From: a virus | Lineage: Duplodnaviria; Caudoviricetes | Length of the DNA: 64,000 nt | IMG/VR virus record: IMGVR_UViG_3300037484_000435 | Location: 224,001-288,000 of that record | Direction: 5' to 3' (one strand) | Shown here: positions 17,609-49,800 of the stretch, one piece after another | How the letters are laid out: each line of letters opens with the position of its first letter | Numbering within the stretch: position 1 is the first letter of the stretch | Notes under the pieces: generated by a model | What the model saw: the letters and a program-made list of their open reading frames with translations, nothing else | Told to the model about the DNA's origin: nothing | Database searches by the model: none | Program-made: the position numbers and the translations under genes

Positions 17609-20600
17609 TTATTCAGGTTGATCCTCGGTTCTAAACGCCCACGTGTAGACTAACTCATTACCATCCAAGTCTTTGCAAGCCACTTCCACCTCGACGTCTT
17701 CACTATATTGCAGATACTGGCTCTGTGCCAATATTCCAACTTTTAAGTCTTCCTTAGGTATGGGCTTGGGTTTTATGTAGACTGGAAGGTCGCAAGTATA
17801 CCCAGGAGAAGACCAAAGCATATAAGACTTACTGCTTCGGGATGGTGCGAAATCATAGGTCTTCACACTAACAAAGATAGGAAACTTGGTGTTAAATTCA
17901 AATGGTGGTATTTGATTAGGAACCGCTTGGTGCCACCAGTTTAATTGCCACCCATAAAAAAGAATATATTCTTCACGGTTATAAACGTCACACGTAGGGT
18001 CATTATTGTGGGATTCCACAGTCAAGTGTACAGCCCTATTACCTATCCAATCCCAGTGGTTCCCTGGGTCCCAGTGCATCCTATGGAAATAAACATCTTC
18101 CCCAGAAGCTGTGACTCCAGTCCACGTCGTAAACCAAGCACCAGAACAAGTAAAGTTATTTACCCCATCTGTCCAAGTTATGGAGCATTCGTCCTCTACA
18201 ATATCAGTAACAGGATAATTCGAGTCAAACAGGTCTACCCAAAAATGGACACCCCTCGCCTCCATTTCATCCACACGCATAGAGTGACCAGTATGCATAA
18301 ACACATCATCGTAACGAATATTATCATTAGGTATAAAATCAAAATAATATTGCCCACTAAAAGTGTTGGGGAATTTATCATCAAATCGAGATAAGAAACC
18401 AATACTATCAGTACCTGTAATAGTAATGGTCATCCGACTTCCAAAGTAACCAATCTCCGTTGCTTCAGGAACATAGTAAGTAAACCTGCGGCCCCACGCT
18501 CCGCTCCCACTATACACGGTACCAGGCGGATATAATATCCTGTTGATACCCGCTGTGTAATCTATACCAGAAGCAGACAGCTGAATGTTTTCCCACTCTC
18601 CCGCAACTTTACCTAAATCGTCATACACCAAAGTTCCTCGGTCATCGAACCATTCGGTCATATTGTTACCACCTGACCATACGGTAATGTCATTCATCTT
18701 GATTAAGACTTCAGTCCACTTAACCCCAGAGTAATCATCTAATATTTCAAACTCAATACCTGAAGAGGGGCAAATTAATTGGTCATAAGGCAGCGGGGCT
18801 TTGGGTATAATAACCGGAGACTCTGTATCGAGCCCTACATCCACATTCACAGTAAGGTCATGTTGACCAACTACATTAAAGCTGATTATTTGGTCTAGCA
18901 TGTTAGAATAAATTAAGGTATTATTCCACGGGGCCTCTTTCTGGAAGAACATCGAATCCAAGGAACCAGAAAAGGTTGATCCACCTATGTATATACTGGT
19001 TCCAGTAGAAGTTGTTAATGGAGTAGAACCCGTAAAAACCGAGGAAAAAGACTTTGTACCATTCATATAAGTGGCTATCCAGCCATCTTTTTTAGTAATA
19101 CCTAAGTGGTTCCAACCAGCAGAAACATTAAAAGGACCACTCCTGCCAAGCAGCGTATCTCCTAGGGAAGCATTTAAATAGCTCCCTGAAAGTGATGTCA
19201 ATAAACCGAATCCCGAGGGCGGAACAAAAGATAATATGTTTCCGTCAATATACGGAGAATAGAGCCACGTATGAAATGTCCAATCACAGGTCGAGAGGTC
19301 TTGTGGCAAATTCTCTGTGAATAGTTGGCTTCCTTGGCTGAAGTTGATACTACCAGTACCATAATATTTATTTGCTGTAGATACCCTTAAACGATTAGCA
19401 TAAATATCTTGTAATTCCTCCACAAGTTCCATACTGACCACACCTATATAAATGCTATTATGGCTCGCAGTAATGTACCATCTGTAATAACGATAAGGCA
19501 TCGGGGGTGTAAAAGTGTACCATTCGCTCCAAGCCCCACCTGAAACATACACAGAACTAGAAACCGTATGCACCGTGGTCCACGTAGACCCGTCATTGCT
19601 ACCTTGAAATACCCAAGTTCTAGGCCAATCTGCATACTGAGTTCGGCTTTGTATTCGGTACTTATTAATATATTTGAAATTATTATACCCAAAATCTATG
19701 ACTGTGTAATAAGGAAAGCTGGTATTATTGTACCAAAGTGTCGTGCTGTTCTTATCGAATAGTTGCCAAGAGGGGTTACCCGCTAAATATACGTTTTCTG
19801 TTACCCTTACTCCCGATGTAGTAATGCCAGACATCGTAGGGACACAACTAACCGTTGAGCTGTTAAGGGACCCATTTTGCATCGATACAGCCCTACTAAA
19901 AACTCTATAAGCATGGGGAGATTCATCAAGAGTGTAATAACCGGACGCAGTTGCTCCTACGTTGCTGTCTATCAGAAGGCTTTCTGGACCAGATACAGGT
20001 ACATATAGAAGAACTCCAGAACTTAACGTATAAGATATTTTGAAACTCGGGGCGTCTTGAGCTTGAAATCTTAAATAGACTTGTTCTCCTGGTTGAAATC
20101 CTGATTTCAGGGCGTACTTAAACTGTGAAGTGTAGTCGGTTAATTTATCGTAATAAGCAATCCCAGAATTTTTCTCAGAGTTCAGGGCAGATACCCCATC
20201 ATAAAGCAACTCCCAAGTATCACCCCCGCTCGTCGTTGCTATACCACTAGGAGTATAATACCTAAAGTAATCAAAGTATGAATCTATCCAACCATCAATA
20301 TTCTTTACAGGAACCGCGGCATTGGTGCCTGACAGCACGGTCCCTTCTATATAGAAGTCGCGAAGCCCTAAGTCAGTAGGCATTGTATACAGACTATCTA
20401 CGTAACGATAGTACCGGTAATAATTAGGGCTAACTACATTAAAATAGAGAGTGTATGAATTTCCATACCGTGGTTGATACATTCGTGTGTCAACCGTTTC
20501 CCAAAAAATATAATCATCTGAGCCTTGCAACATAAAGTGAACAGGCCCCTGATACACATCGTTACTAAAACCATGTCCACCCGTCCAATACCCGTATCTT

Positions 20601-23600
20601 TGTATCCGCATTTTATTGCCCGAACCACAATCTATGCTAAACCACCCAGGATAGTCATTATAAAGGGCTTGAGGTGCTGCACTATTAAATCGATGAGGTA
20701 GATAATAACGAGAACCTGTATCAGAATCAAATAACCGAAAAACATTAGGGTCTATACTAGACCAAGGTGTATATGTAGTCCACGGAGACGGGGCCGCATT
20801 AGAGGTCATATAAGCTGGTTTTCGATTCCACACAGAGTCAAGGTCTAGCGTTTCCTGCAGAGTTATTAATCCAACGTTCACAATCCCTGTGGCTAGTGAA
20901 TTTCCGTGGTATCTATCCCCATCCCACTGCACTTTTCTTAATCTGGCAGATGTTCCCCAACTAAATATAGTATCAGTGCTGGTATAGTATGACAACATCG
21001 CCCCTTTCAGGGTAGTCAATCTGTAGTATTGGTAGGGTTGGGGGTTATCAATGTAAAAGTAAGTTCCAGCAGAACCAGAACCGGGGTCCAAGACCAATCC
21101 CCTATAGTCAATGGTATTCCACGTTTGGTCATCAATGCTAGCATCCAAACTTATTTGACAAGGGAATGACCGAACCATGTAATCCGAGTCCAGAGAAGCA
21201 ACTAGACGATAACGAGTCATAATTTCAGGCTGAGCAGATTTCCATTTTATCCAATGGCTAAGCCCGACCCCGCTTGCAGATTGCCAACCAGTCGATCCCA
21301 AATAGGATGCTTTCCAAGGTTCCCAGCTCGACTGATTGCTCGAAGATGTCCACGCATGACCACTAGTAGTTGTCCCAGACATGGTAATGTTTAGTTCCAC
21401 AGGAGTGCTTTGAATATTAACCCCAGACCAAGTAGTACCATCTAATGACCAGTAAGCCCTGTAATAAGGCATAGTTGGTTTTCGTTGTACCTTTAACCAA
21501 ACCCAATTTCCCTCAGTAAATCCGATTCCGCTGTAGGTAGTCTGGCTTAAAAAATCCAGCTTCGTATGGTCCCGCGCACAAATTCCAGAAGCATTAGCAA
21601 GAACCTGAATATATTGGGAACTATCACTTTGGTCAAATACTATCAGACCTGAACTTTGGGAGCTACGGGGCCCATTACCGAATATCTTGACTTTTGTGGA
21701 AATCTCCCAATCATCTTGTGTAATCCCGGGCCAGTACATTAGTGGGGCAGATTGTTGTGTGGAATCCCAAATGCCGCTTGACGTCGTTACCTGCAGTGTG
21801 TTTGTACCATCTACATTACAAGATGGATTACAGTGGAAAGAACCTATCCTCATGGTCTCAAGTGAGATATCTAGACCCGAAGTAGTTAAAGTTTGATGCA
21901 CCCCCGATAGAGTAGCAGAGAAGTCAAGGTCCACCGTACTAGTAAACCCCTTGTTAATCTTGAACGCAGAGCTATTGTTAAGATTTTTAATAGACCATTG
22001 AACTGGTATAGAGGGTGTGGTTGATGTTTTTAAATCAGCCTCATAAAAACTAAAATTGTCCATATATACATAGGAATTGTAACCCATATCCCGCCGTTTT
22101 ATCCACAGACGAGAATCACTACTTCTAAACAAGCTTCCATAATCACGTAAAGTGTAAATCAGAGCATTCGAAGCTGTCCAATCTAGGTCAGCATCTACCA
22201 TACGAGTATTATTCGCAGGGGACTCTGTGTATATCTGCGGGGATTGAAAATCGTAAGTTTGTTCTCGGAATTCCGCGGTTAACGTGTTGGTGGGTATCAA
22301 CAAATTATAGGATTCTAAAGACATTGTCCTAGGTATCTGTATTTCCCATAAATCAAATCTATTTGCCCCTAGGGCATATACCGAGATTTGTTCCATCACC
22401 AAGCATTGGCACCTACTATCCGTTCCAGTAGCGGCGGTCATACATCCAAAACAGCCCATTTGATTAGCCAGCCAACCACTGGAACACCTAGCAATATTCA
22501 CTACAACAGGGTTAATCTCCCACGCAACTACAGATAAATCTCTCTGTATTCGGTAACTTATGCTCTGGAATTTTATTTCTAGTGAGCTCGGGCTAGCACA
22601 TTGGTACTGCCCATAATAATAGAAGGCTAAGTCCTTCTGAATACTGCGGGAAGCGATAGAACCAGAAATACTAATCAGGTCCTCATAAACATTTACATTA
22701 GAAGACTTGTAACCTTCTGTACATAACCATTGTACTTGTGAAACCTTATTTATTAATTTTAGACTTTCTTCCGCCGTCAACCACCGTGACCAATGAGAGA
22801 CTTCATCCAAAACAAATGCCCCACTAGTCGTAGGCGGTAAACCGTTATCAAAATAACTAACACCACTGCTAGTTAAAAAAGTAGACCCGATAGTGTTACC
22901 AGACCCTACCGTTAAGCCCCTTTCTTGTTGTGCATTTACCCACCAACAGTAATCCCCGTTTGACTTAACCCCAGCTTGCAGGAGATACCAAGTATTGGAA
23001 TCCCAGTCATGCGTAGCCGTTCCATAAGCCAATCCGTCTCGTTTGGTCTCCAACCATATTCTCCCGTCGTCACGTGGGCCGACCGCACCAGACACACCAG
23101 TTTCATTATAGGAAACAACAAATCTACCAGGCTCCTCCAAGTCACCTAACTCTGGGGGCTTCTTACCTTTGGTGAAGGCAACATAGTCGAATTGTACTTC
23201 AGGAGAAGCCCCTAAGGTATTACGACTTTGTAAACCAAAAGCCATATTACTCCCCCACAAAGATACATCCACTTCATAGATGGTATCTTGCCAACCAGCA
23301 GTAGAGGGGTCCCAAAACTTAAACTTAATTAAGTTATCTTTTTTTAACATCCTAAGTTTGTAATCGGTTGCGGTGGTAGGACCAGTAATATCCTCACGAG
23401 CTGTATAGGAGAACGTGCTAGTTTGAACAAGAACATCAAGATTGCCGGGCTCATAAACAGAGGAGGCCAATTCTATCTCTCCTATCCAAACATAAGTATT
23501 AGAGGAAACAGCAGTAGTTTTTAATCTGTAATGGGTATAATTTCCCGGTGTATCTATATCAAACCAAGCCGTCCACGTCCCAGTTCCTGGGCGGGAAATA

Positions 23601-25228
23601 CCTACTTGAAAATCGACCTGCGCCCAATGAGACTCATTACTTATACTGGGACTGGAAACTGTGTTACCGTAGAGAGTGAAATCTTTGGGAAATCCACTGG
23701 TATCAGTAGTATTGGGGCTTCTTAATCGATACCTAGTTATGTTATAAGCAGAAGAGCCAAACCCATAAACAATAGATTGTGGTAATCCACTAGCGGTTAA
23801 TGAGCACCAACCATAGGCGTCATTCACATGATCGAAAGCCTTATACGCTGGGTAACCCACATTATATATAGTGGTGGCTTCGACCGTGAAAGGGCTCGGG
23901 GCAGTATTAGAAGTCATCGCTACGGTCTGGTCCGTATCCGCTGAGGCCCCACCAGTATTTTTAAATTGAATTGAGGCGTAATTTAGGTAGGAACTAAGGT
24001 TGAAAAATATAATTCCCGCTGCCTGACCATCCGAGAGGGTACTCAAACGAAATTTAGTCTCAATCTCCCAATCGGTATTTTTAGGTATTTTGAAATAAAG
24101 AGTAGAAGCCGTCCATGTACCCCCAAACCAGTTAGTACTGGGGTTACCCTTTAACCTGAGGTTAGTTACATCGCTTGGAAGGGAATACACCACCTTAATG
24201 GCCCCATTAATAGTAGCACTAGACAACAATTGGTTAGTCCCTGTTACATTACCAGCCGCGTAATACGCGGTCCCAGTGGTTATCCCGTTTGTCATATTTG
24301 CTGTGATGTAAAGTCCCAAATAGTAGGTATCGGACGTAGGAACGACATAAGGAGTAGACAAAGTAAAAGTTTGTGCTCCTCCCCCCGCATGAGAGAAGGT
24401 TTCTATATTAACAATATCGTATCTATTGGAACCTAAACTTTTACAACTCTTCCATGTTATGGTTGTTGCAGTAGTGGAATAAGCAGTGATAGTTAAGATG
24501 GTGGAACCAGGAACTAAAGAATAGGCTAACTCAACTATGGTATTATTTCCACCCCAATAAGAACTACCAGCAGAGGAGGTCCCTAAGAATAACGGATCCG
24601 AGGCCTTACATATTTGTGTATTGTTGAGTAAGTACCAACCCTTATACGGAGAATAGGCAGTATAATCCCAATAGGTTGCAAAATTATCACCGCAAAACGG
24701 GTCGGAAGATAGAATTCTAAAACTTTGGCTATTACCAGAAGTTAATGTATTTGATGGTTTAAACCAAAAGGCACACATATATTCCGTAAGCCCAGACGGC
24801 ATCGTGGGAACATGAACATAACCATTGGGGCCCTCAGCTACAGCACACCCATACCCACGCTTAGCAAGTGCTGGAACTGTACCATGGTTGATCGCGTAGT
24901 AATTATTGTTGGACCAATCATCAAAGTAATCCCCCGTCTCAGCAAACGTGTGCCAAGCTATAAGATCGCCCTTTAAATCCAGAGGACTTAATCCAATAGC
25001 CTCTCCTACATCTTGTGTATAGACCATAAGATTGCTATCAACATAATTACCATCACACAGCGAGTAAATCCCGCTAGGCAGAATTATATCAGCACATACA
25101 TATGAACCACTCAGGGAGGGTAAAATATAAGAGTATGAGTAGTTTACATAGTGACTCCCAGAAACGAGAGTAGTACCTGATAAGGTGGTACCAGATGCTG
25201 TTATAACTCCGCTTACGGTCAAACTCAT
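17609..25228 (-). CDS. Giant modular lectin/adhesin-like fibre protein (2539 aa): LamG, DUF1349-like ConA, DUF4082-like, four F5/8C discoidin-like and Ig-like modules
   Basis: LamG motifs: AWHTF..., EYMCAFWFKP, LDEVSHWSRWLT, and a second WTFHTWLY...WNHLGIT. Discoidin repeats: MTSNxAPSP...YRL...FTLxG...YRL...IGEIEL. An Ig-like DTESPVI...FEILDDYSGV segment lies near the C-terminus. Confidence 0.8.
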   Translation of the reverse strand: MSLTVSGVITASGTTLSGTTLVSGSHYVNYSYSYILPSLSGSYVCADIILPSGIYSLCDGNYVDSNLMVYTQDVGEAIGLSPLDLKGDLIAWHTFAETGDYFDDWSNNNYYAINHGTVPALAKRGYGCAVAEGPNGYVHVPTMPSGLTEYMCAFWFKPSNTLTSGNSQSFRILSSDPFCGDNFATYWDYTAYSPYKGWYLLNNTQICKASDPLFLGTSSAGSSYWGGNNTIVELAYSLVPGSTILTITAYSTTATTITWKSCKSLGSNRYDIVNIETFSHAGGGAQTFTLSTPYVVPTSDTYYLGLYITANMTNGITTGTAYYAAGNVTGTNQLLSSATINGAIKVVYSLPSDVTNLRLKGNPSTNWFGGTWTASTLYFKIPKNTDWEIETKFRLSTLSDGQAAGIIFFNLSSYLNYASIQFKNTGGASADTDQTVAMTSNTAPSPFTVEATTIYNVGYPAYKAFDHVNDAYGWCSLTASGLPQSIVYGFGSSAYNITRYRLRSPNTTDTSGFPKDFTLYGNTVSSPSISNESHWAQVDFQVGISRPGTGTWTAWFDIDTPGNYTHYRLKTTAVSSNTYVWIGEIELASSVYEPGNLDVLVQTSTFSYTAREDITGPTTATDYKLRMLKKDNLIKFKFWDPSTAGWQDTIYEVDVSLWGSNMAFGLQSRNTLGASPEVQFDYVAFTKGKKPPELGDLEEPGRFVVSYNETGVSGAVGPRDDGRIWLETKRDGLAYGTATHDWDSNTWYLLQAGVKSNGDYCWWVNAQQERGLTVGSGNTIGSTFLTSSGVSYFDNGLPPTTSGAFVLDEVSHWSRWLTAEESLKLINKVSQVQWLCTEGYKSSNVNVYEDLISISGSIASRSIQKDLAFYYYGQYQCASPSSLEIKFQSISYRIQRDLSVVAWEINPVVVNIARCSSGWLANQMGCFGCMTAATGTDSRCQCLVMEQISVYALGANRFDLWEIQIPRTMSLESYNLLIPTNTLTAEFREQTYDFQSPQIYTESPANNTRMVDADLDWTASNALIYTLRDYGSLFRSSDSRLWIKRRDMGYNSYVYMDNFSFYEADLKTSTTPSIPVQWSIKNLNNSSAFKINKGFTSTVDLDFSATLSGVHQTLTTSGLDISLETMRIGSFHCNPSCNVDGTNTLQVTTSSGIWDSTQQSAPLMYWPGITQDDWEISTKVKIFGNGPRSSQSSGLIVFDQSDSSQYIQVLANASGICARDHTKLDFLSQTTYSGIGFTEGNWVWLKVQRKPTMPYYRAYWSLDGTTWSGVNIQSTPVELNITMSGTTTSGHAWTSSSNQSSWEPWKASYLGSTGWQSASGVGLSHWIKWKSAQPEIMTRYRLVASLDSDYMVRSFPCQISLDASIDDQTWNTIDYRGLVLDPGSGSAGTYFYIDNPQPYQYYRLTTLKGAMLSYYTSTDTIFSWGTSARLRKVQWDGDRYHGNSLATGIVNVGLITLQETLDLDSVWNRKPAYMTSNAAPSPWTTYTPWSSIDPNVFRLFDSDTGSRYYLPHRFNSAAPQALYNDYPGWFSIDCGSGNKMRIQRYGYWTGGHGFSNDVYQGPVHFMLQGSDDYIFWETVDTRMYQPRYGNSYTLYFNVVSPNYYRYYRYVDSLYTMPTDLGLRDFYIEGTVLSGTNAAVPVKNIDGWIDSYFDYFRYYTPSGIATTSGGDTWELLYDGVSALNSEKNSGIAYYDKLTDYTSQFKYALKSGFQPGEQVYLRFQAQDAPSFKISYTLSSGVLLYVPVSGPESLLIDSNVGATASGYYTLDESPHAYRVFSRAVSMQNGSLNSSTVSCVPTMSGITTSGVRVTENVYLAGNPSWQLFDKNSTTLWYNNTSFPYYTVIDFGYNNFKYINKYRIQSRTQYADWPRTWVFQGSNDGSTWTTVHTVSSSVYVSGGAWSEWYTFTPPMPYRYYRWYITASHNSIYIGVVSMELVEELQDIYANRLRVSTANKYYGTGSINFSQGSQLFTENLPQDLSTCDWTFHTWLYSPYIDGNILSFVPPSGFGLLTSLSGSYLNASLGDTLLGRSGPFNVSAGWNHLGITKKDGWIATYMNGTKSFSSVFTGSTPLTTSTGTSIYIGGSTFSGSLDSMFFQKEAPWNNTLIYSNMLDQIISFNVVGQHDLTVNVDVGLDTESPVIIPKAPLPYDQLICPSSGIEFEILDDYSGVKWTEVLIKMNDITVWSGGNNMTEWFDDRGTLVYDDLGKVAGEWENIQLSASGIDYTAGINRILYPPGTVYSGSGAWGRRFTYYVPEATEIGYFGSRMTITITGTDSIGFLSRFDDKFPNTFSGQYYFDFIPNDNIRYDDVFMHTGHSMRVDEMEARGVHFWVDLFDSNYPVTDIVEDECSITWTDGVNNFTCSGAWFTTWTGVTASGEDVYFHRMHWDPGNHWDWIGNRAVHLTVESHNNDPTCDVYNREEYILFYGWQLNWWHQAVPNQIPPFEFNTKFPIFVSVKTYDFAPSRSSKSYMLWSSPGYTCDLPVYIKPKPIPKEDLKVGILAQSQYLQYSEDVEVEVACKDLDGNELVYTWAFRTEDQPE

Positions 25229-34800: not shown

Positions 34801-35328
34801 TACTATAGTTGCGATGTGGGCCTTTATAAAATAATACCTGTCATCAAAAGAAAAACCAGATGCGTAGCCAGTTATATTGGTGGACTTCATATAACTTGTT
34901 CCAATGCTAGGCAGGTTAACTCTGCTAATGTTATTGGATCCAGAAAGCCCAGAAGCGAAGTAAAGAGATAAATAGTAGAGGGGATAGTCTGAGGGTACCC
35001 GCTTAGGAGTAAAGTAGAAGTACTGATAACCTGTGCTTCCCGAAACTGTAACAGTGGCCACATCTATTATACGCCAATTTATACGATCTGCAGTACCCGC
35101 TATCTTAACAACAAATGTGGCTGGTATATTACATCGTATGCTCACCCCAGCCAATACCGAATTTGGAGGAAGGGACACGTTAGTATCAATAATAGTAGTA
35201 TTGGAATCAGCCCCGTAATCATTTCCACCAGTCGGCCAAGATGTTGGTAAAGTATAATACCAAGACCCAGTTTGTTGTATTCCCGAAGTACATGTTGTAT
35301 AGAATAAATCATTAACTATGTTATACAT
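31861..35328 (-). CDS. Fibre/appendage protein, paralog family member (1155 aa): DUF4082-like and discoidin modules plus the conserved C-terminal core
   Basis: Shares SGSWLSPV, GNLWLVD, PHP, LPRGRYSQFRLTL and LLVWW with the 851-aa and 5054-aa genes. Confidence 0.8.
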   Translation of the reverse strand: MYNIVNDLFYTTCTSGIQQTGSWYYTLPTSWPTGGNDYGADSNTTIIDTNVSLPPNSVLAGVSIRCNIPATFVVKIAGTADRINWRIIDVATVTVSGSTGYQYFYFTPKRVPSDYPLYYLSLYFASGLSGSNNISRVNLPSIGTSYMKSTNITGYASGFSFDDRYYFIKAHIATIVELPSQGSKLSFPITLTSGTYVGLEFQSQSEIQCSEIMITTSPTPSGIMKIDYAQFAGDQLSSDGVYNNNTGYATPKMTYHDEPAGYRASASSEVAGYWPYEAFTQTNATTGDSWQSANTQMSGTAPHCLMFTFSGTGKVINRYQILTRNDSNASLRGAPRDWVLQGTNDTRAVAYNDAYWASLDTRTSISDPGQNAWSSIFNFNNAQAYSRYRLRITARNNQAVSYYYVCIGELKLIEADQIYSYPTYSWYPGNWVTSSGAHHQVTFSPEKGLDRIRLFFGNSGSSPLTVSGVSIMVRGTDEITMSGTLPTLRYTFSDTDPQFLDIKNTGSGSAFPRLSLSYTGNYEVDRNIFISTDYSTQYDKEEAHWEGLDSGGFLIPEQYPWELGTLSGSVVYRRNLQLPDTSYSGSWLSPVFDTERNPVRLYVYPTGGVYPQIEVKSADTQPAEAIFSIITTENTHEKLMYKHKRIVLDSNGYVISRVECNSPQVGNKIWRMADYTFAGQPLNYYGAVNSRGTASFMAPGYTTCGDIDPVQEALDPLQWYNLCVCKLDDTSLWNTGTSVSGFEWGPTKSVIYTKTFPLESSDGVFFSAISTSTSQELTADVRTQVNMGFYNNGQVMMAFPIITYRGVKLGATDYYDVVEDYANNGWWIYLGGSIGRVYKTDVGSFNTIRVFGAGELTTSQDPLDNCEYYSYLYYLDIESDYKHIVSIPNRDFSGFWAFTASGVHLFKEEYTNETPSLDNVRQIEAGTIISGSFVDLHQGACDSLGNLWLVDLDAERLMRVNLKRSLDLNDPNPVDFDNYISGIINVFPHPTSELAYVLCSESIENPDQDTIHMVSAGQSVGAHSKFVCAVPGFLSSTYKRCVNFTGTTFTNYYRTRSADSIWGLNAGGWYTISNTDLLPRGRYSQFRLTLSRPSLTKTTPSVQRLRLPFPITLEPLDKLQTRQVAIKTVFNRAKTFGIFNTNLLVWWFDEEFYYG

Positions 35329-43800: not shown

Positions 43801-46800
43801 AATAATATCCAGAATGACCATATCCCATTGATTCCCAGATGTAGTATAGTTAATATAATCCGAATCGCTTGAAGTCTGTAATGGAACTACTACACTCGGG
43901 TTACCGCCGAAAGTTACTACGGACGGTGTACAGAGTAGAGACCAATCCGTAATCCCCACATGATAAGGGTAAACTTTTATTCCACTAACAGAGGGTGAAC
44001 TCCTAAATGTGTGGGCTATAGAAAGGTCACCGGAACCCACAGATTGAAAATCTCCATGAGTGAGTGATTCCACACCACTTGCACTAACAGAGGTCCACGA
44101 AAACTGGTCATCCCGTGAAAGAGATGTGTCTACAAATTCTTCTTGTTCAATGAATGTCCTTATATAAGGTATATATTTTCCAACAGTGTATATCCCAGAG
44201 ATTGTGGTGCTGTAGTTCCCTGATACTGAAGGAATTACGGGCACGTCTGAGAAATGTAAACTAGATATATTTATGCCTGTAGCACAAGTAGTTGACCCAT
44301 AAATATTAATACCATAATATTGGTACGCTTTGGTATTCAACAAATTATTCCACATTACTTCAGGGACCTCGTCCTTCTCGTAATAAACTATCCGGACTCG
44401 AACCACCCCTTGTGTATCTGGTACAATTGCATTGGTGCCAAGATATAAATCAAGATTAGCAAAATTATTTGTTCCTGACCAACTCATCACTATACCGCTA
44501 CCAGCAAATTGTGAAGATACTAGGGAGTTTCCGTCTCCCAACAAGGAATACGTAGGAGAACTTCTAAAAGCTATTTTCGGCTCATTAACTATACCAGGTG
44601 AATTTGGAATTGATATCCTGTCACCAACCTGATTTCCTAATCGATAGTACACCCCATATTGTCTTTGTGTATTTCCTGCGAAACCGACAAGAGTTTGACC
44701 AGTACCCAAATATAAACCGGGTTCCCAAAAAGCCCCAGAAGCAGGGATTAAATAAGGTTCAGGTAAATGGTACCAGTAGTTTCCTGTGCCTGGATGTGTA
44801 ATACCAGAGCAAATATTAAATATACTGTTTACTGAGGCATCCCAATGAAATACTGCTTTATAGGTAATACCTGTAATTGGGACTGAACTATACATCCCTA
44901 TATCAGAAATATAAGTTCCCCCCGGAATGCCCGTAGGATTGCCCTGAAATACATATGTGTAATCCCCGCTAATCCAATAGTTAGCAAACCCCCAAGTAGT
45001 AGGGATATCTAATTGCTTACTATACCATCCACCTTTACAAGGGCTATCTACACCCAAGTAAACTTCTAAACGTTCAATACTATCTCTAAGGGTAAAGAGT
45101 TTCCTAGGAAAGGTTCCACTAATAGTAATTAAGAACTCTTCCTCTTTTCTAATAAGTGGAGCAGAGGGTGGCGGAACATAATCATATACCTCTGATAATA
45201 TTTTCCATCCCTCCTCTGGGTCCAAAGCATCTAAACCATACTTAACTTCTGGTCCCAGCAACGGGGTATCTACGGATGACCTTATACCGAAACGAGTAAG
45301 ACAAACTCGTCTTCCAAAATCAACAACTATTTTTCCCGGTGCTTCCAAAGTGGTTGCTTTAGCAAAGTATAGACCGTCCTGATTAAGGGTAGGATACTTT
45401 AACCGATACATATTAAACACTTCTTCATCAGTCAAATACTTATTAAAATGCATTACATTATCTAAAGAGAATTCCCCCTTAACTCCATCAGAACCCTTAA
45501 GAGGTAAACCAAAATACATACAGTTTGCTTGGTCACGCTCAGTATAGTGTATGTCTGTGGGGTCTACCATAATAACCGAGTCGGAAGGATAAACATCTGA
45601 ATAGAGATTACTAGAGTATATATCAGGAGCACCATCCACCCATACTTTCATACTACCATCAGATTTAAAAGCATAGGCTATATGATGCCACACCTGATTG
45701 GGCCAACGATAACGACCAGTGACAATTGCTTTACCATAATTCCCAAAAACTAAACGACTCTGATAATAGCACTCTTTAGGCTGTAAATACGGATAGGGAG
45801 AATCATTAAATAATAAGTCTTGATAATAAGAAATATGCCAAACTCCTGGTATGGCCCCATAGGAAACCCAGCCACCCATAATATCATAATAAGCAGTATA
45901 TCCTACATCTACAGTATGACCTGGCTTAAACCAAAACGCTACTGTATATTCGGTCAACCGAGAGGGCAATGTAAATCGTATGTTTCGTTCTTCATCTGAA
46001 TTATCATCACTAATATACGCACACCTTCCAACCTTTCCCACATTACTAAGAACTGGCCCCACCCTAGTAGCTATTACATTATTCCCAGATAAATCATCAT
46101 AATCCCCCTCTTCCTCATCTAACGTATGCCAAGCCATTATATTAGAGTTACCCAACTCCACGACAGTAAAGGGTATATCTTCTGGATTCTCTGGGTCATA
46201 TTTAAAAATAACTTCTGGCGTTGGGCACACAGTATTTAGATTATTCTCCCCATGGTAAAAGTAGGAACCAGGAGAAGGCTCGCTCGCACCATAAGAAGTA
46301 AAAGTATTATATATTTCCTTTACTGCCCTGTGCACACCAGGATGATAAAGCATCTCTATTGAGGCTGGGTCTATCCCACTCCCGACAATCCTCTGTATAA
46401 CATTATAAGGTTCTTCCACAATATGATAAGATTGATAAGATTTATTTATCAATAATTCCATCTCAGCTAAACTTGAATATCCTGTAGCAAAATTAGAGTG
46501 GCACGGGTCAAAACGAAAGTATCTATAGCTATCAACGTAATCGTCAAAATAAACCCAAGGCAACTTCGTAGCATTCGTTCTTGGTGCAAGAAAACCATCA
46601 TCAAAATACAATTCGTCCCACCCATCAGAAGATAATAGGTTCCGAGGAGAATTAGAACCACCTATCGTAATCATCGTGGGAAAATGTTCTAGATAGTAGT
46701 TGTAGCTACTTCCGGTCTGAAAACGAAAAGCATTAATATAGGAGGGCTCGTCAAAGCGAAGCATAAAGTAAAGGTGTTGTGTTTCATCCAGTTTACGATA

Positions 46801-49800
46801 GCTATAGAAAAAGGTACTTGGGTCCCCATCCATCAAATGCTGAGCAAAGTGGGTAGCTTCAAAACTGGCGGACCCTGAAATAGTATAGGGCCAAGCATTA
46901 TAAGTGTCACCACGAGAATCCTCAAAATAAAAAGTATAGGTAGTAATACCTTGTGTATCTGGGACTATTGGTGTCGCGGGGCGGTACAGGTAAACTGCAC
47001 TCGCTGTTGTGAACGGTCCTAAAGTTGTTCCCCCGACATACTGGTGGCCATCAGTCCCAGGACTAAACGCAGGATACATGATATCATGGTCTGTATCTGT
47101 ACCGACTGTGAAGTAAGTAGAATAACGAACAGCCAAATGGGGGCGTTGTGTACTATGCAGGGGTAAATTTATATTGGTTCCAGTGTAATCACCGTATTGA
47201 TATGAAACTAACTGAGCACCAGTATAATCACCCATCATTCTAGGAAAGTTAGGTTGATACCAACCCAGATGATAAGTAGCCCCATCACTAGGAATTTCGT
47301 AGGGGTTAGTAAGTTTAAACCAGCGGAAGCCACCACCAGAATGTGTAAAAGTCGCGATGTCCCATATGTCATACCACTCCCCACCCACATTCCTGTCTTT
47401 AAAGATACGAAAGGAAATATTACTGGCTAGGTCGGAATCAACTCCCACATAAGCAATAGCCTTACCATTATCAAGATTCCAGTGGCGGTCAACAATCGTC
47501 CAAAAACTATTAGAGTAGGTCCCAGAAGCGGTATCAGGATTACCATCAACCTCAACATACCCACCCTGAGTTCCTGACACAGATGTAATCACCATCCCTG
47601 TAACTTGGTAATATGCAGGTAAGTCTAACAACTTAACAGGATAAGATGCCTCGGAATAGGTTACGGTTTCGGTATAGGAATTCCCCTCAGCAGTCTCGAT
47701 AGACATACCAGAGAGTTCCATATTGTAGGTAGACCCTCCCCAAACGGAAGAAACTTGTAGGCGATAATTCAAGGCTGAACTAGGAAGGTCATCAAAAGCC
47801 ATATATTGAACTACAAGCGGTAAAATTAAATCAGTTCTATAACTTCCCAAAGTCACCGTACCCGTTGGTCCGGGGGAAGGTATAACACCTAAATTTGCGT
47901 ATCGAAAATTTTTACCAGAAGACGTCCGTTGCAGAGAGGATAAGCTAGAGACACCTCTCCAAATCCCAACATAGTAATTACCAACCGCAGGCACCTTAAG
48001 TGGGGCTGAAAGAGTAGTCCAATGCAAACCATCACTCGGATGATTAATTGGGCCAATATCACTAACTTCCCACGTTAAGTCATTAATATTTTTACATAGT
48101 TTAAACCTAGCTTCCCCAGGGGTCCCAAGACAGTTTAGCCCTATCTTGTCAATCACATAACCATTATCTAGTGGTATTGTAAGGTCCACAAATAATACAT
48201 TATTGTCACTTATTGCGTTAGTATTCCCAGCAACAAGATTACCCTCTATCCGTCTTACACTATCCTCGGGAGAATAAGGTATAGTAATTGTTGGACCAGT
48301 TACGGCCTCACCACCACTAGGTAGGTCCCCTCCAGGTTTGTCGTAATCTACTTGTGTTAACTTTATCCAATCCGCATCAACATCCAAACGCGGAGTTCCC
48401 GATGTAGAAGCCCACAACGATACTGTTTTTGGGGATACTAGCCTGTGTGCTAAATTTTGACTCCCCACAGTTACAGAGTCTTTCACAGCGGTCAAATTGA
48501 ACGCAGTTATCTGAACAGGTTTAGACCTATAATCAATCCCTATGTTGACCACCCCAGAAGACATGGGGTATTTACTTACATATTGTGAGTAAGTAGTCCC
48601 GTCAAATAAGTAACGGGCATCAAAACCTTGTTTAGCTTCCAGTATGGTAAATCCTATGTTGGAGCCAGAATCATCGGAAAACTCCAATTTACCCAGACGG
48701 ACACAGCAAGTGTTGTCTCCGTAGATTGAATTTACTTTTAGTCGGTAGTGGTAGTAAGCTCCAGACGCCGTAATCCCCATAAAGTCAGAATATCTATTGG
48801 GTGCAATTGGCAATACACAAACACCAGAAGTCAAAAATGTCCAGTGGGATTCATTTTCTAAAGAAGGGCTCGTAAGGTTTGAAGCAGAAACTTCTACATT
48901 GTGTGGAAATTCTATGTCCCAATAATAATAGTTAGACGAAGACTTGATGCGGAGTTTATTAAAGGTACGTTGCTCCGTCATACCCAAACCTATTATAACT
49001 GGGCCTTTATCTATAGGCCTACCACTGTGAAATTCTACAGAAGAGTCAATATCAAAAGCATAGGTTGCTTCCTTCCCTGGTTGGCACGTATTCTCTGTCA
49101 CCCAATATAAGCCACTTGGGGCTGTTTCCATGTAATTAGTAGTGAGGTAATAGCTGGGCTCAGAAAACTCTACCACAGAGCCTACCTGCACATCTGGGGC
49201 ATAACTCGTGGGAGTGTTAACTGTAATCAATTGTGTAGCATAAGCATCAGGGGAAACTATTTCGACCGTATGTTTTTCTGTCACGCCAAAGAAATCTGGT
49301 AAAGCATATTTAACATTGTAAAGTTTATTATAGAAACTTGTTCCTGTGAGAGTAACCCAGTCACTAATTTGTAAACCATTATTGGTGGCTGGAAAAATAA
49401 CTAAGTCAGACTTACGCACCTCTATGTTCTTTAATAAAACCACACCAGATTGAGAAGTAAAATCGCTCACCACTACAGTCTGTTCGTCATATGATGCAAA
49501 TTTAGGTAGTTCAAAATATCTATAATCTGTGTAGCCACTTAACCTAGAAAGTGCTCCCGAACTCTCGTCTATATCAGAAGCAATTAGGATATCTAGGTCT
49601 GCTGGAACTGTAACATTCAACCAGTCTGAAGTTAAAATGTTGTATCCACCTGAGATGGTGCACCCTCGTTGACCATCAAATAAGAACTCTTGCGGTGTTG
49701 CTGTACCAACAGGATTATAAGCAATACCCTTAATTGTTATTCCTTCTAACAGCGATTCTATCACACCATTGGAGACCAGCCCCACCCCAAATTGTGGGTA

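Follow-up and report, generated by a model that had tools for sequence, protein, structure and literature searches.

Domain organization of the 2539-residue protein

The window analysed herein is a stretch of 64,000 nucleotides (bases 224001-288000) of the 545,322-base virus record IMGVR_UViG_3300037484_000435, which is rated complete and represents an uncultured megaphage. Near the N-terminus of a 2539-amino-acid (aa) protein encoded in this window (P0001), a LamG/ConA-type jelly roll is cut into two pieces (aa 76-177 and 697-830) by 519 aa, close to the insert of about 520 aa given in the original prediction, which had been made from the sequence of the window alone. The 519-aa insert is a second ConA-like jelly roll, itself in three pieces (aa 178-210, 352-426, and 597-696), and two modules interrupt it, namely a DUF4082-like module, herein called cassette C, and a discoidin/CBM32-type module, herein called cassette E. 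The pieces follow the order A1-B1-C-B2-D-B3-A2 of a nested domain insertion, with cassette E standing at D: the pieces of each host make up one domain, the inserts are found stand-alone elsewhere, and homologues without the inserts exist.

The boundaries listed in Table 1 were refined using those orthologues in which a given insert is missing, the edges being set by the resulting gaps. All of the motifs quoted in the original prediction were present in the 2539-aa open reading frame (ORF) at the places given there, including IAWHTFAETG (aa 90), EYMCAFWFKP (aa 149), and RILSSDP (aa 171-177) in the LamG N-half and PGRFVVSY (aa 700), WDSNTWYLL (aa 742), and LDEVSHWSRWLTAEE (aa 807-821) in the C-half. 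The edges moved slightly on refinement, from 22770 to 22739 for the lower end of the LamG C-half, and from 24190-24555 and 23455-23940 to the positions in Table 1 for cassettes C and E, respectively, and both cassettes do split the ConA-like domain as predicted. Cassette E lies between the strand ending in ..KNTG and the strand ..DVLVQT, and the linker that follows VQFDYVAF in the third inner piece is kept in all orthologues.

Table 1. Features of the nested region, the uninterrupted reference domain, and the gene, with positions in the window
Feature	Position	Strand	Evidence
Outer LamG/ConA-like jelly roll, N-half, aa 76-177	24698..25003	minus	BLASTP to contiguous paralogue E 1e-11; VIA-align/Atlas matches from model residue 2/9 to 753/754; interlocks with C-half in complex prediction
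Inner ConA-like jelly roll (GH43_C2/DUF1349 type), piece 1, aa 178-210	24599..24697	minus	Colinear with contiguous P0011 domain; matches to GH43 C-terminal domains begin at model residue 103 (aa 178)
DUF4082-like beta module (cassette C), aa 211-351	24176..24598	minus	In hairpin turn CxAG/YxGTYL (insertion point at the slash) of inner jelly roll; clean gap in 19/21 orthologues
Inner ConA-like jelly roll, piece 2, aa 352-426	23951..24175	minus	Pfam GH43_C2 20.6 bits (aa 348-426); colinear with P0011
Discoidin/CBM32-type module (cassette E), aa 427-596	23441..23950	minus	In second hairpin of inner jelly roll
Inner ConA-like jelly roll, piece 3, aa 597-696	23141..23440	minus	Ends with closing strand VQFDYVAF and conserved linker; colinear with P0011; GH43 C-terminal matches end at model residue 613-614
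Outer LamG/ConA-like jelly roll, C-half, aa 697-830	22739..23140	minus	Laminin_G_3 19.4 bits; BLASTP to paralogue E 1e-5; structural matches end at model residue 753-755
Contiguous paralogous LamG, 5054-aa gene, aa ~2303-2549	45406..46146	minus	Laminin_G_3 29.0 bits (cut-off 27.6); uninterrupted reference
Gene for 2539-aa protein P0001, nest near N-terminus	17609..25228	minus	ORF list and translation; neighbourhood matches P0004 and P0154

Sequence comparison of the split domains

The intact paralogous LamG domain that had been proposed in the 5054-aa gene is indeed contiguous and matches both halves of the split domain. By BLASTP, two segments of the 2539-aa protein aligned with it, aa 76-173 (E 1e-11) and aa 732-825 (E 1e-5), and the spacing between the two matches was about 48 residues in the paralogue compared with 559 in the 2539-aa protein; exactly at the position of the insert, the paralogue has a turn of 7 aa. 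When aa 76-177 and 697-830 were joined, a single high-scoring segment pair (HSP) with the paralogue was obtained (E 1.3e-16), and a hidden Markov model (HMM) built from the rejoined LamG halves of 22 orthologues matched the paralogue as one envelope spanning the junction (positions 12-232 of 236, E 8e-20).

Similar results were obtained for the inner domain. The three rejoined ConA pieces gave one HSP with the uninterrupted domain of an orthologue (P0011:158-375; 42% identity, E 1.7e-55), which itself exceeds the Pfam threshold for GH43_C2 (PF17851; 28.9 bits, cut-off 22.7). The description of the insert as a ConA-like domain holds. PF07081 (DUF1349) was not listed for the window or the orthologues at E values up to 10, and in place of DUF1349-like, the domain is better named a GH43_C2/DUF1349-type ConA-like domain. 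The discoidin family F5_F8_type_C (PF00754) matched cassette E of the nearest orthologue, P0154, with 26.7 bits. The split by cassette C was borne out, and the assignment of this cassette to DUF4082 rests on weak sequence evidence: 10 of 20 aligned members of the C-type family match Pfam DUF4082 weakly (best E 1.1e-4), and an Atlas cluster with 55% DUF4082 members scores 0.90. Searching the PDB by sequence, either with aa 60-900 or with a profile built for the C-type family, returned nothing meaningful.

Predicted structure of the nest

The nested region (aa 76-830) was predicted by AlphaFold2 with a 42-row alignment at a mean predicted local distance difference test score (pLDDT) of 85.9 and a predicted template modelling score of 0.74; in alignment A3, the short DUF4082-like rows were trimmed to their core. 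Each split domain of the model superposed on contiguous solved domains, as determined using VIA-align against solved chains with three match classes. In the model, both LamG halves contribute to a single beta jelly roll, and the outer domain matched ESM-Atlas clusters consisting to 100% of Laminin_G_3 members with template modelling (TM) scores, taken by the match, of 0.61-0.71 over 206-214 aligned residues (model residues 2-754). The inner domain matched over the whole of the GH43_C2/DUF1349-type fold, and its matches include 3mep and 3o12, which we take to be DUF1349 proteins, a result suggestive of a DUF1349 relationship at the level of the modelled fold. Cassette E was modelled as a galactose-binding-domain-like beta sandwich, and the core strands of cassette C reached pLDDT values of 74-85, with the structural matches listed for the model falling to the other domains. 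As the alignments are longer than any one piece, each sandwich is predicted to be built from the full set of pieces of its split domain. In the BFVD database, matches were found at the level of single domains, and none covered the whole nest (TM score by query at most 0.23).

The excised LamG halves were also folded as two separate chains, leaving out the 519-aa insert, and they interdigitated in place of folding apart, with a complex score of 0.88 compared with 0.02 for the best control; 58 of 80 solved complexes attained this mark, as did 2 of 110 mismatched pairs. At least 90% of the contacts were common to the runs, and the partner pLDDT was 86. In this prediction, YMCAFWF of the N-half is flanked by two strands of the C-half, YLLQAGV and VSHW, and the hairpin whose turn holds the insert is formed by FRIL together with VVSY. 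Because the halves belong to a well-known fold, this outcome may mirror likeness to solved LamG domains, and it should be read as likeness and not as a measurement.

Polymorphism of the inserted modules among orthologues

A total of 21 full-length orthologues from independent metagenomes were collected using an exhaustive and a word-index search, and the LamG-around-ConA scaffold was kept in all 21. Homologues without the inserts, the existence of which had been raised in the original prediction, were found in the form of orthologues that lack cassette C, cassette E, or both, with clean gaps at fixed turns. Among the 22 rows including the window, cassette C is present in 3 and cassette E in 15, and both occur together only in the window. 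Cassette C alone is carried by P0004 and P0005, and cassette E alone by P0154-6, P0003, P0159, P0008, P0010, P0160, P0012, and P0013, as well as by P0157/P0158 and P0006/P0007, in which cassette E has an extra insert; P0009, P0161, P0011, P0014, and P0015 have neither. Stand-alone relatives of the two cassettes are phage proteins of about 157 aa (C type) and proteins of 160-180 aa (E type).

In a maximum-likelihood tree of 444 scaffold columns, the window grouped (100/99) with the E-only orthologues P0154-6, and cassette C appeared in three separate places, so that at least three changes of cassette C and at least three of cassette E are required on the scaffold tree. Cassette C of the window shares 75.2% identity with that of P0004, compared with 45.7% for the scaffold (binomial 1e-12), and cassette C of P0005 is only 31-32% identical to either of them. 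On these values, the same turn has received at least two types of cassette, one of which has moved between lineages. Four other DUF4082-like modules are present in the same genome, three in the 5054-aa gene (47164-47529, 47947-48189, and 44620-44988) and one in the gene for a 1155-aa protein (34867-35232). With only 28-37% identity to cassette C, these modules are ruled out as a recent donor, and no close relatives of cassette C were found in a scan of viral_contigs. The cassette boundaries are free of flanking repeats, direct or inverted, and there is consequently no sign of a recombination signal; when the DNA over the C junction was aligned with that of the nearest orthologue (L001), the sequences proved too diverged to inform on the insertion mechanism.

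Several relatives, which were read at the sequence level only, appear to carry the nesting further. In P0157 (aa 296-614) and P0158, a complete discoidin domain (aa 394-550 in P0157) lies inside cassette E; this inner discoidin aligns over its full length with stand-alone discoidins of 160-170 aa (E 3e-29), and its Pfam register fits nesting. On these two grounds, a tandem doubling of the discoidin in these two proteins was rejected. In P0006 (aa ~280-600) and P0007, a different loop of cassette E holds a module of about 160 aa from another family, which also occurs in P0055 and P0029. In P0018 (831 aa), a discoidin (F5_F8_type_C, 46.8 bits) is placed directly in the LamG hairpin (aa 349-722), replacing the ConA-like domain, which indicates that this hairpin accepts different folds. 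The orthologue family would therefore span two to four nesting levels.

Gene and genomic setting

The large genes of the window are all located on the minus strand, and the gene order around the 2539-aa gene was the same in the two orthologue neighbourhoods that were read (P0004 and P0154). When ten neighbouring genes were compared with PHROGs, a match was obtained for the 1155-aa protein only, to a tail family, and a blastn comparison with the phage collection gave no match. The database gene call for the nested protein (P0153, 2472 aa) begins 67 aa later, at Met68, the region concerned being window positions 25027-25228. The longer form, starting at 25228, is more likely from its sequence context, because its ATG directly adjoins the stop codon of the upstream 400-aa gene and because most orthologues have 60-77 residues ahead of the LamG domain.

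Outside the nest, the 2539-aa protein contains an uninterrupted discoidin (aa 1819-1925, window 19454-19774, 31.7 bits) and an uninterrupted Laminin_G_3 domain (aa 1973-2091, window 18956-19312; 27.6 bits, exactly at the cut-off). A second ConA-like domain is located at aa ~1141-1755 (window 20265-21830), where the HMM of the rejoined inner domain matches aa ~1141-1237 (E 1.4e-6) and a closing strand, IDSYFDYFRYY, follows two stretches that look discoidin-like by eye; this domain looks nested as well. The nested head is 71% identical to that of P0154, compared with only about 52% for the other 2,200 residues, which suggests a mosaic history along the gene.

Discussion

In the present study, the N-terminal third of a megaphage tail-region protein was found to be, with high probability, a compact cluster of four beta-sandwich domains of lectin type that are nested within each other and not arranged in series. 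Herein, we propose the following arrangement. The LamG-type jelly roll would be the sole domain on the main path of the chain, and the hairpin turn between its strands FRILSS and RFVVSY would carry the second jelly roll, of ConA-like type, in which two hairpin turns would each hold an autonomous module, the DUF4082-like one and the discoidin/CBM32-like one. Because the N- and C-termini of the inserted folds lie side by side, these folds could be accommodated by a tight turn while the sheet of the host stays intact. The LamG-around-ConA scaffold is probably ancient and shared without exception by the orthologue family, and the two inner sockets appear to gain, lose, and exchange cassettes between phages, with the discoidin of some relatives seemingly hosting a fourth level. 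From the fold families and the tail context, the cluster might represent a multivalent glycan-binding head on a protein for host adhesion, and the protein might be shaped like a fibre; its binding repertoire could be changed cassette by cassette, with the rest of the protein keeping its length and register. The present data show the split, the colinearity, the polymorphism of the cassettes, and the predicted folds; from these, sugar binding, a role in adsorption, and an adaptive value of cassette exchange are inferred.

Several points weigh against the nested arrangement. The structural evidence is all prediction, and the edges of cassette C (model residues 140-157 and 236-277), alone in the model, were predicted at low confidence. 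The domains of the window each fall below the Pfam gathering scores: the LamG C-half alone reached 19.4 bits for Laminin_G_3 (PF13385) over profile positions 42-149 of 151 (gathering score 27.6) and the N-half alone gave no match to this family in the Pfam scan, the inner domain reached 20.6 bits for GH43_C2 over aa 348-426 only (gathering score 22.7), cassette E reached 18.8 bits for PF00754 (gathering score 28.2), and cassette C did not match DUF4082 (PF13313; gathering score 28.4 bits). In addition, the neighbouring genes yield almost no family matches, and each cassette change may be a gain or a loss, given that the scaffold tree has no root and that four of its forks are open.

The low Pfam scores, together with the useless result of a single-sequence AlphaFold2 run on aa 80-830 (pLDDT 30.8), might indicate that the nesting is an artefact of prediction or alignment, in which the halves resemble LamG by chance or through low complexity and the model was pulled by the alignment. 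This explanation is highly improbable and has been largely refuted by the agreement of two different predictors, the strength of the pairwise and profile statistics (E 1e-16 to 1e-55, and 8e-20), the contiguous inner domain above the Pfam threshold in orthologues without the inner cassettes, and the controls of the complex test, which did not exceed 0.02. The failures that the original prediction had named as refuting it did not occur, since the rejoined halves scored as single domains, each split domain of the model superposed on a contiguous solved domain, and the excised LamG halves were predicted to interlock. A different reading holds that the region consists of separate small beta domains in series and that the LamG halves complete their sheets in trans, through strand or domain swapping with another copy or protein. 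The predictions cannot distinguish pairing in cis from pairing in trans within an oligomer; however, in the single-chain model the two halves make up one jelly roll with high confidence, the strands flanking the insert pair with each other, the contiguous paralogue has its short turn at the insert site, and the linker lengths are conserved, which makes pairing in trans very unlikely. The patchy presence and absence of the inner cassettes at fixed sites and the signature of their transfer between phages would also be expected if the cassettes were selfish or spliced-out elements, comparable to inteins or introns, without a function in the mature protein, and we give this explanation next to no credence. 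Nested insertion of cassettes that remain in the mature protein is, in our opinion, the reading to be preferred.

The original prediction had further claimed that this architecture grew by the insertion of whole domains into surface loops rather than by tandem addition. Growth by insertion agrees with the orthologues that have or lack clean cassettes at the exact hairpin turn, with the repeated changes of each cassette on the scaffold tree. The exclusion of tandem addition does not hold, since the contiguous Laminin_G_3 and discoidin domains stand in series in the same protein; insertion adds to tandem addition and does not replace it.

The principles of nested insertion and of the insertion of carbohydrate-binding modules (CBMs) into phage tail proteins are already known. 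In the 'evolved' Dit and decorated Tal proteins of siphophages of lactic acid bacteria, one or two CBMs are inserted in loops of the galectin domain, and these inserts, which some phages have and their close relatives lack, act as accessory host-binding modules (PMC7291167; PMC6669499). The protein described herein resembles 'evolved' Dit in that CBM-type inserts occupy loops of a lectin-like beta sandwich in a phage tail protein for adhesion, with binding predicted in the present case, and in that the inserts are patchily distributed among relatives. In contrast, the role of host falls here to a LamG/ConA jelly roll and not to a galectin domain, and no Dit family or ring domain was found in Pfam scans of the 2539-aa protein. 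Moreover, the first insert is a full jelly roll of about the size of its host and itself hosts two modules, such that the nesting depth is three, and apparently four in relatives, compared with one in 'evolved' Dit, and the phage is an uncultured megaphage of 545 kb and not a small siphophage.

Domain insertion has been described in approximately 20% of multidomain proteins, with inserts typically smaller than their hosts (median 115 vs 199 residues), and nesting of up to six levels has been reported for the Si3 region of the beta' subunit of cyanobacterial RNA polymerase (Protein Sci 2026, PMC13114784). The recursive topology, the adjacent termini of the inserts, and their autonomous folds are consistent with such nested insertions in general. 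Unlike the surveyed insertions, the first-level insert with its cargo comprises 519 aa in a host of 236 aa, and about 208 aa when bare; in addition, the domains are of lectin type, and close relatives differ from each other in the inner levels. Compared with the C-terminal ConA-like domain of GH43 beta-xylosidases (PF17851; PDB 5z5d, 5joz, and 2exh) and with the small proteins 3mep and 3o12, the version in the window lacks the GH43 catalytic propeller and is interrupted twice, and an identity of about 11-16% gives no support for an enzymatic role. Likewise, cassette E differs from known CBM32/F5-8 type C modules, such as the CBM32s of Clostridium perfringens, the chitosan-binding DD1/DD2, and domain 1 of galactose oxidase, in its sub-threshold score and in being inserted in a loop and not appended. 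What differs in the present system is the domain families involved, an insert that is of host size and of the same superfamily, the depth of nesting, and the cassette polymorphism among megaphage orthologues.

A further, tentative idea, which we consider rather unlikely, is that the two hairpin turns are dedicated sockets into which co-infecting megaphages swap ready-made lectin cassettes, so that host range would be switched by whole domains while the length and assembly of the adhesin are unaltered. The orthologue family provides a natural series in which one scaffold carries zero, one, two, or deeper inserts at defined hairpin turns, and this series shows which of the turns in LamG, ConA-like, and discoidin sandwiches tolerate the insertion of whole domains, which is of interest for protein evolution and design. 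The present results further suggest that the giant adhesins of megaphages might diversify their glycan-binding repertoire through the gain, loss, and exchange of cassettes, extending the picture obtained from 'evolved' Dit proteins.

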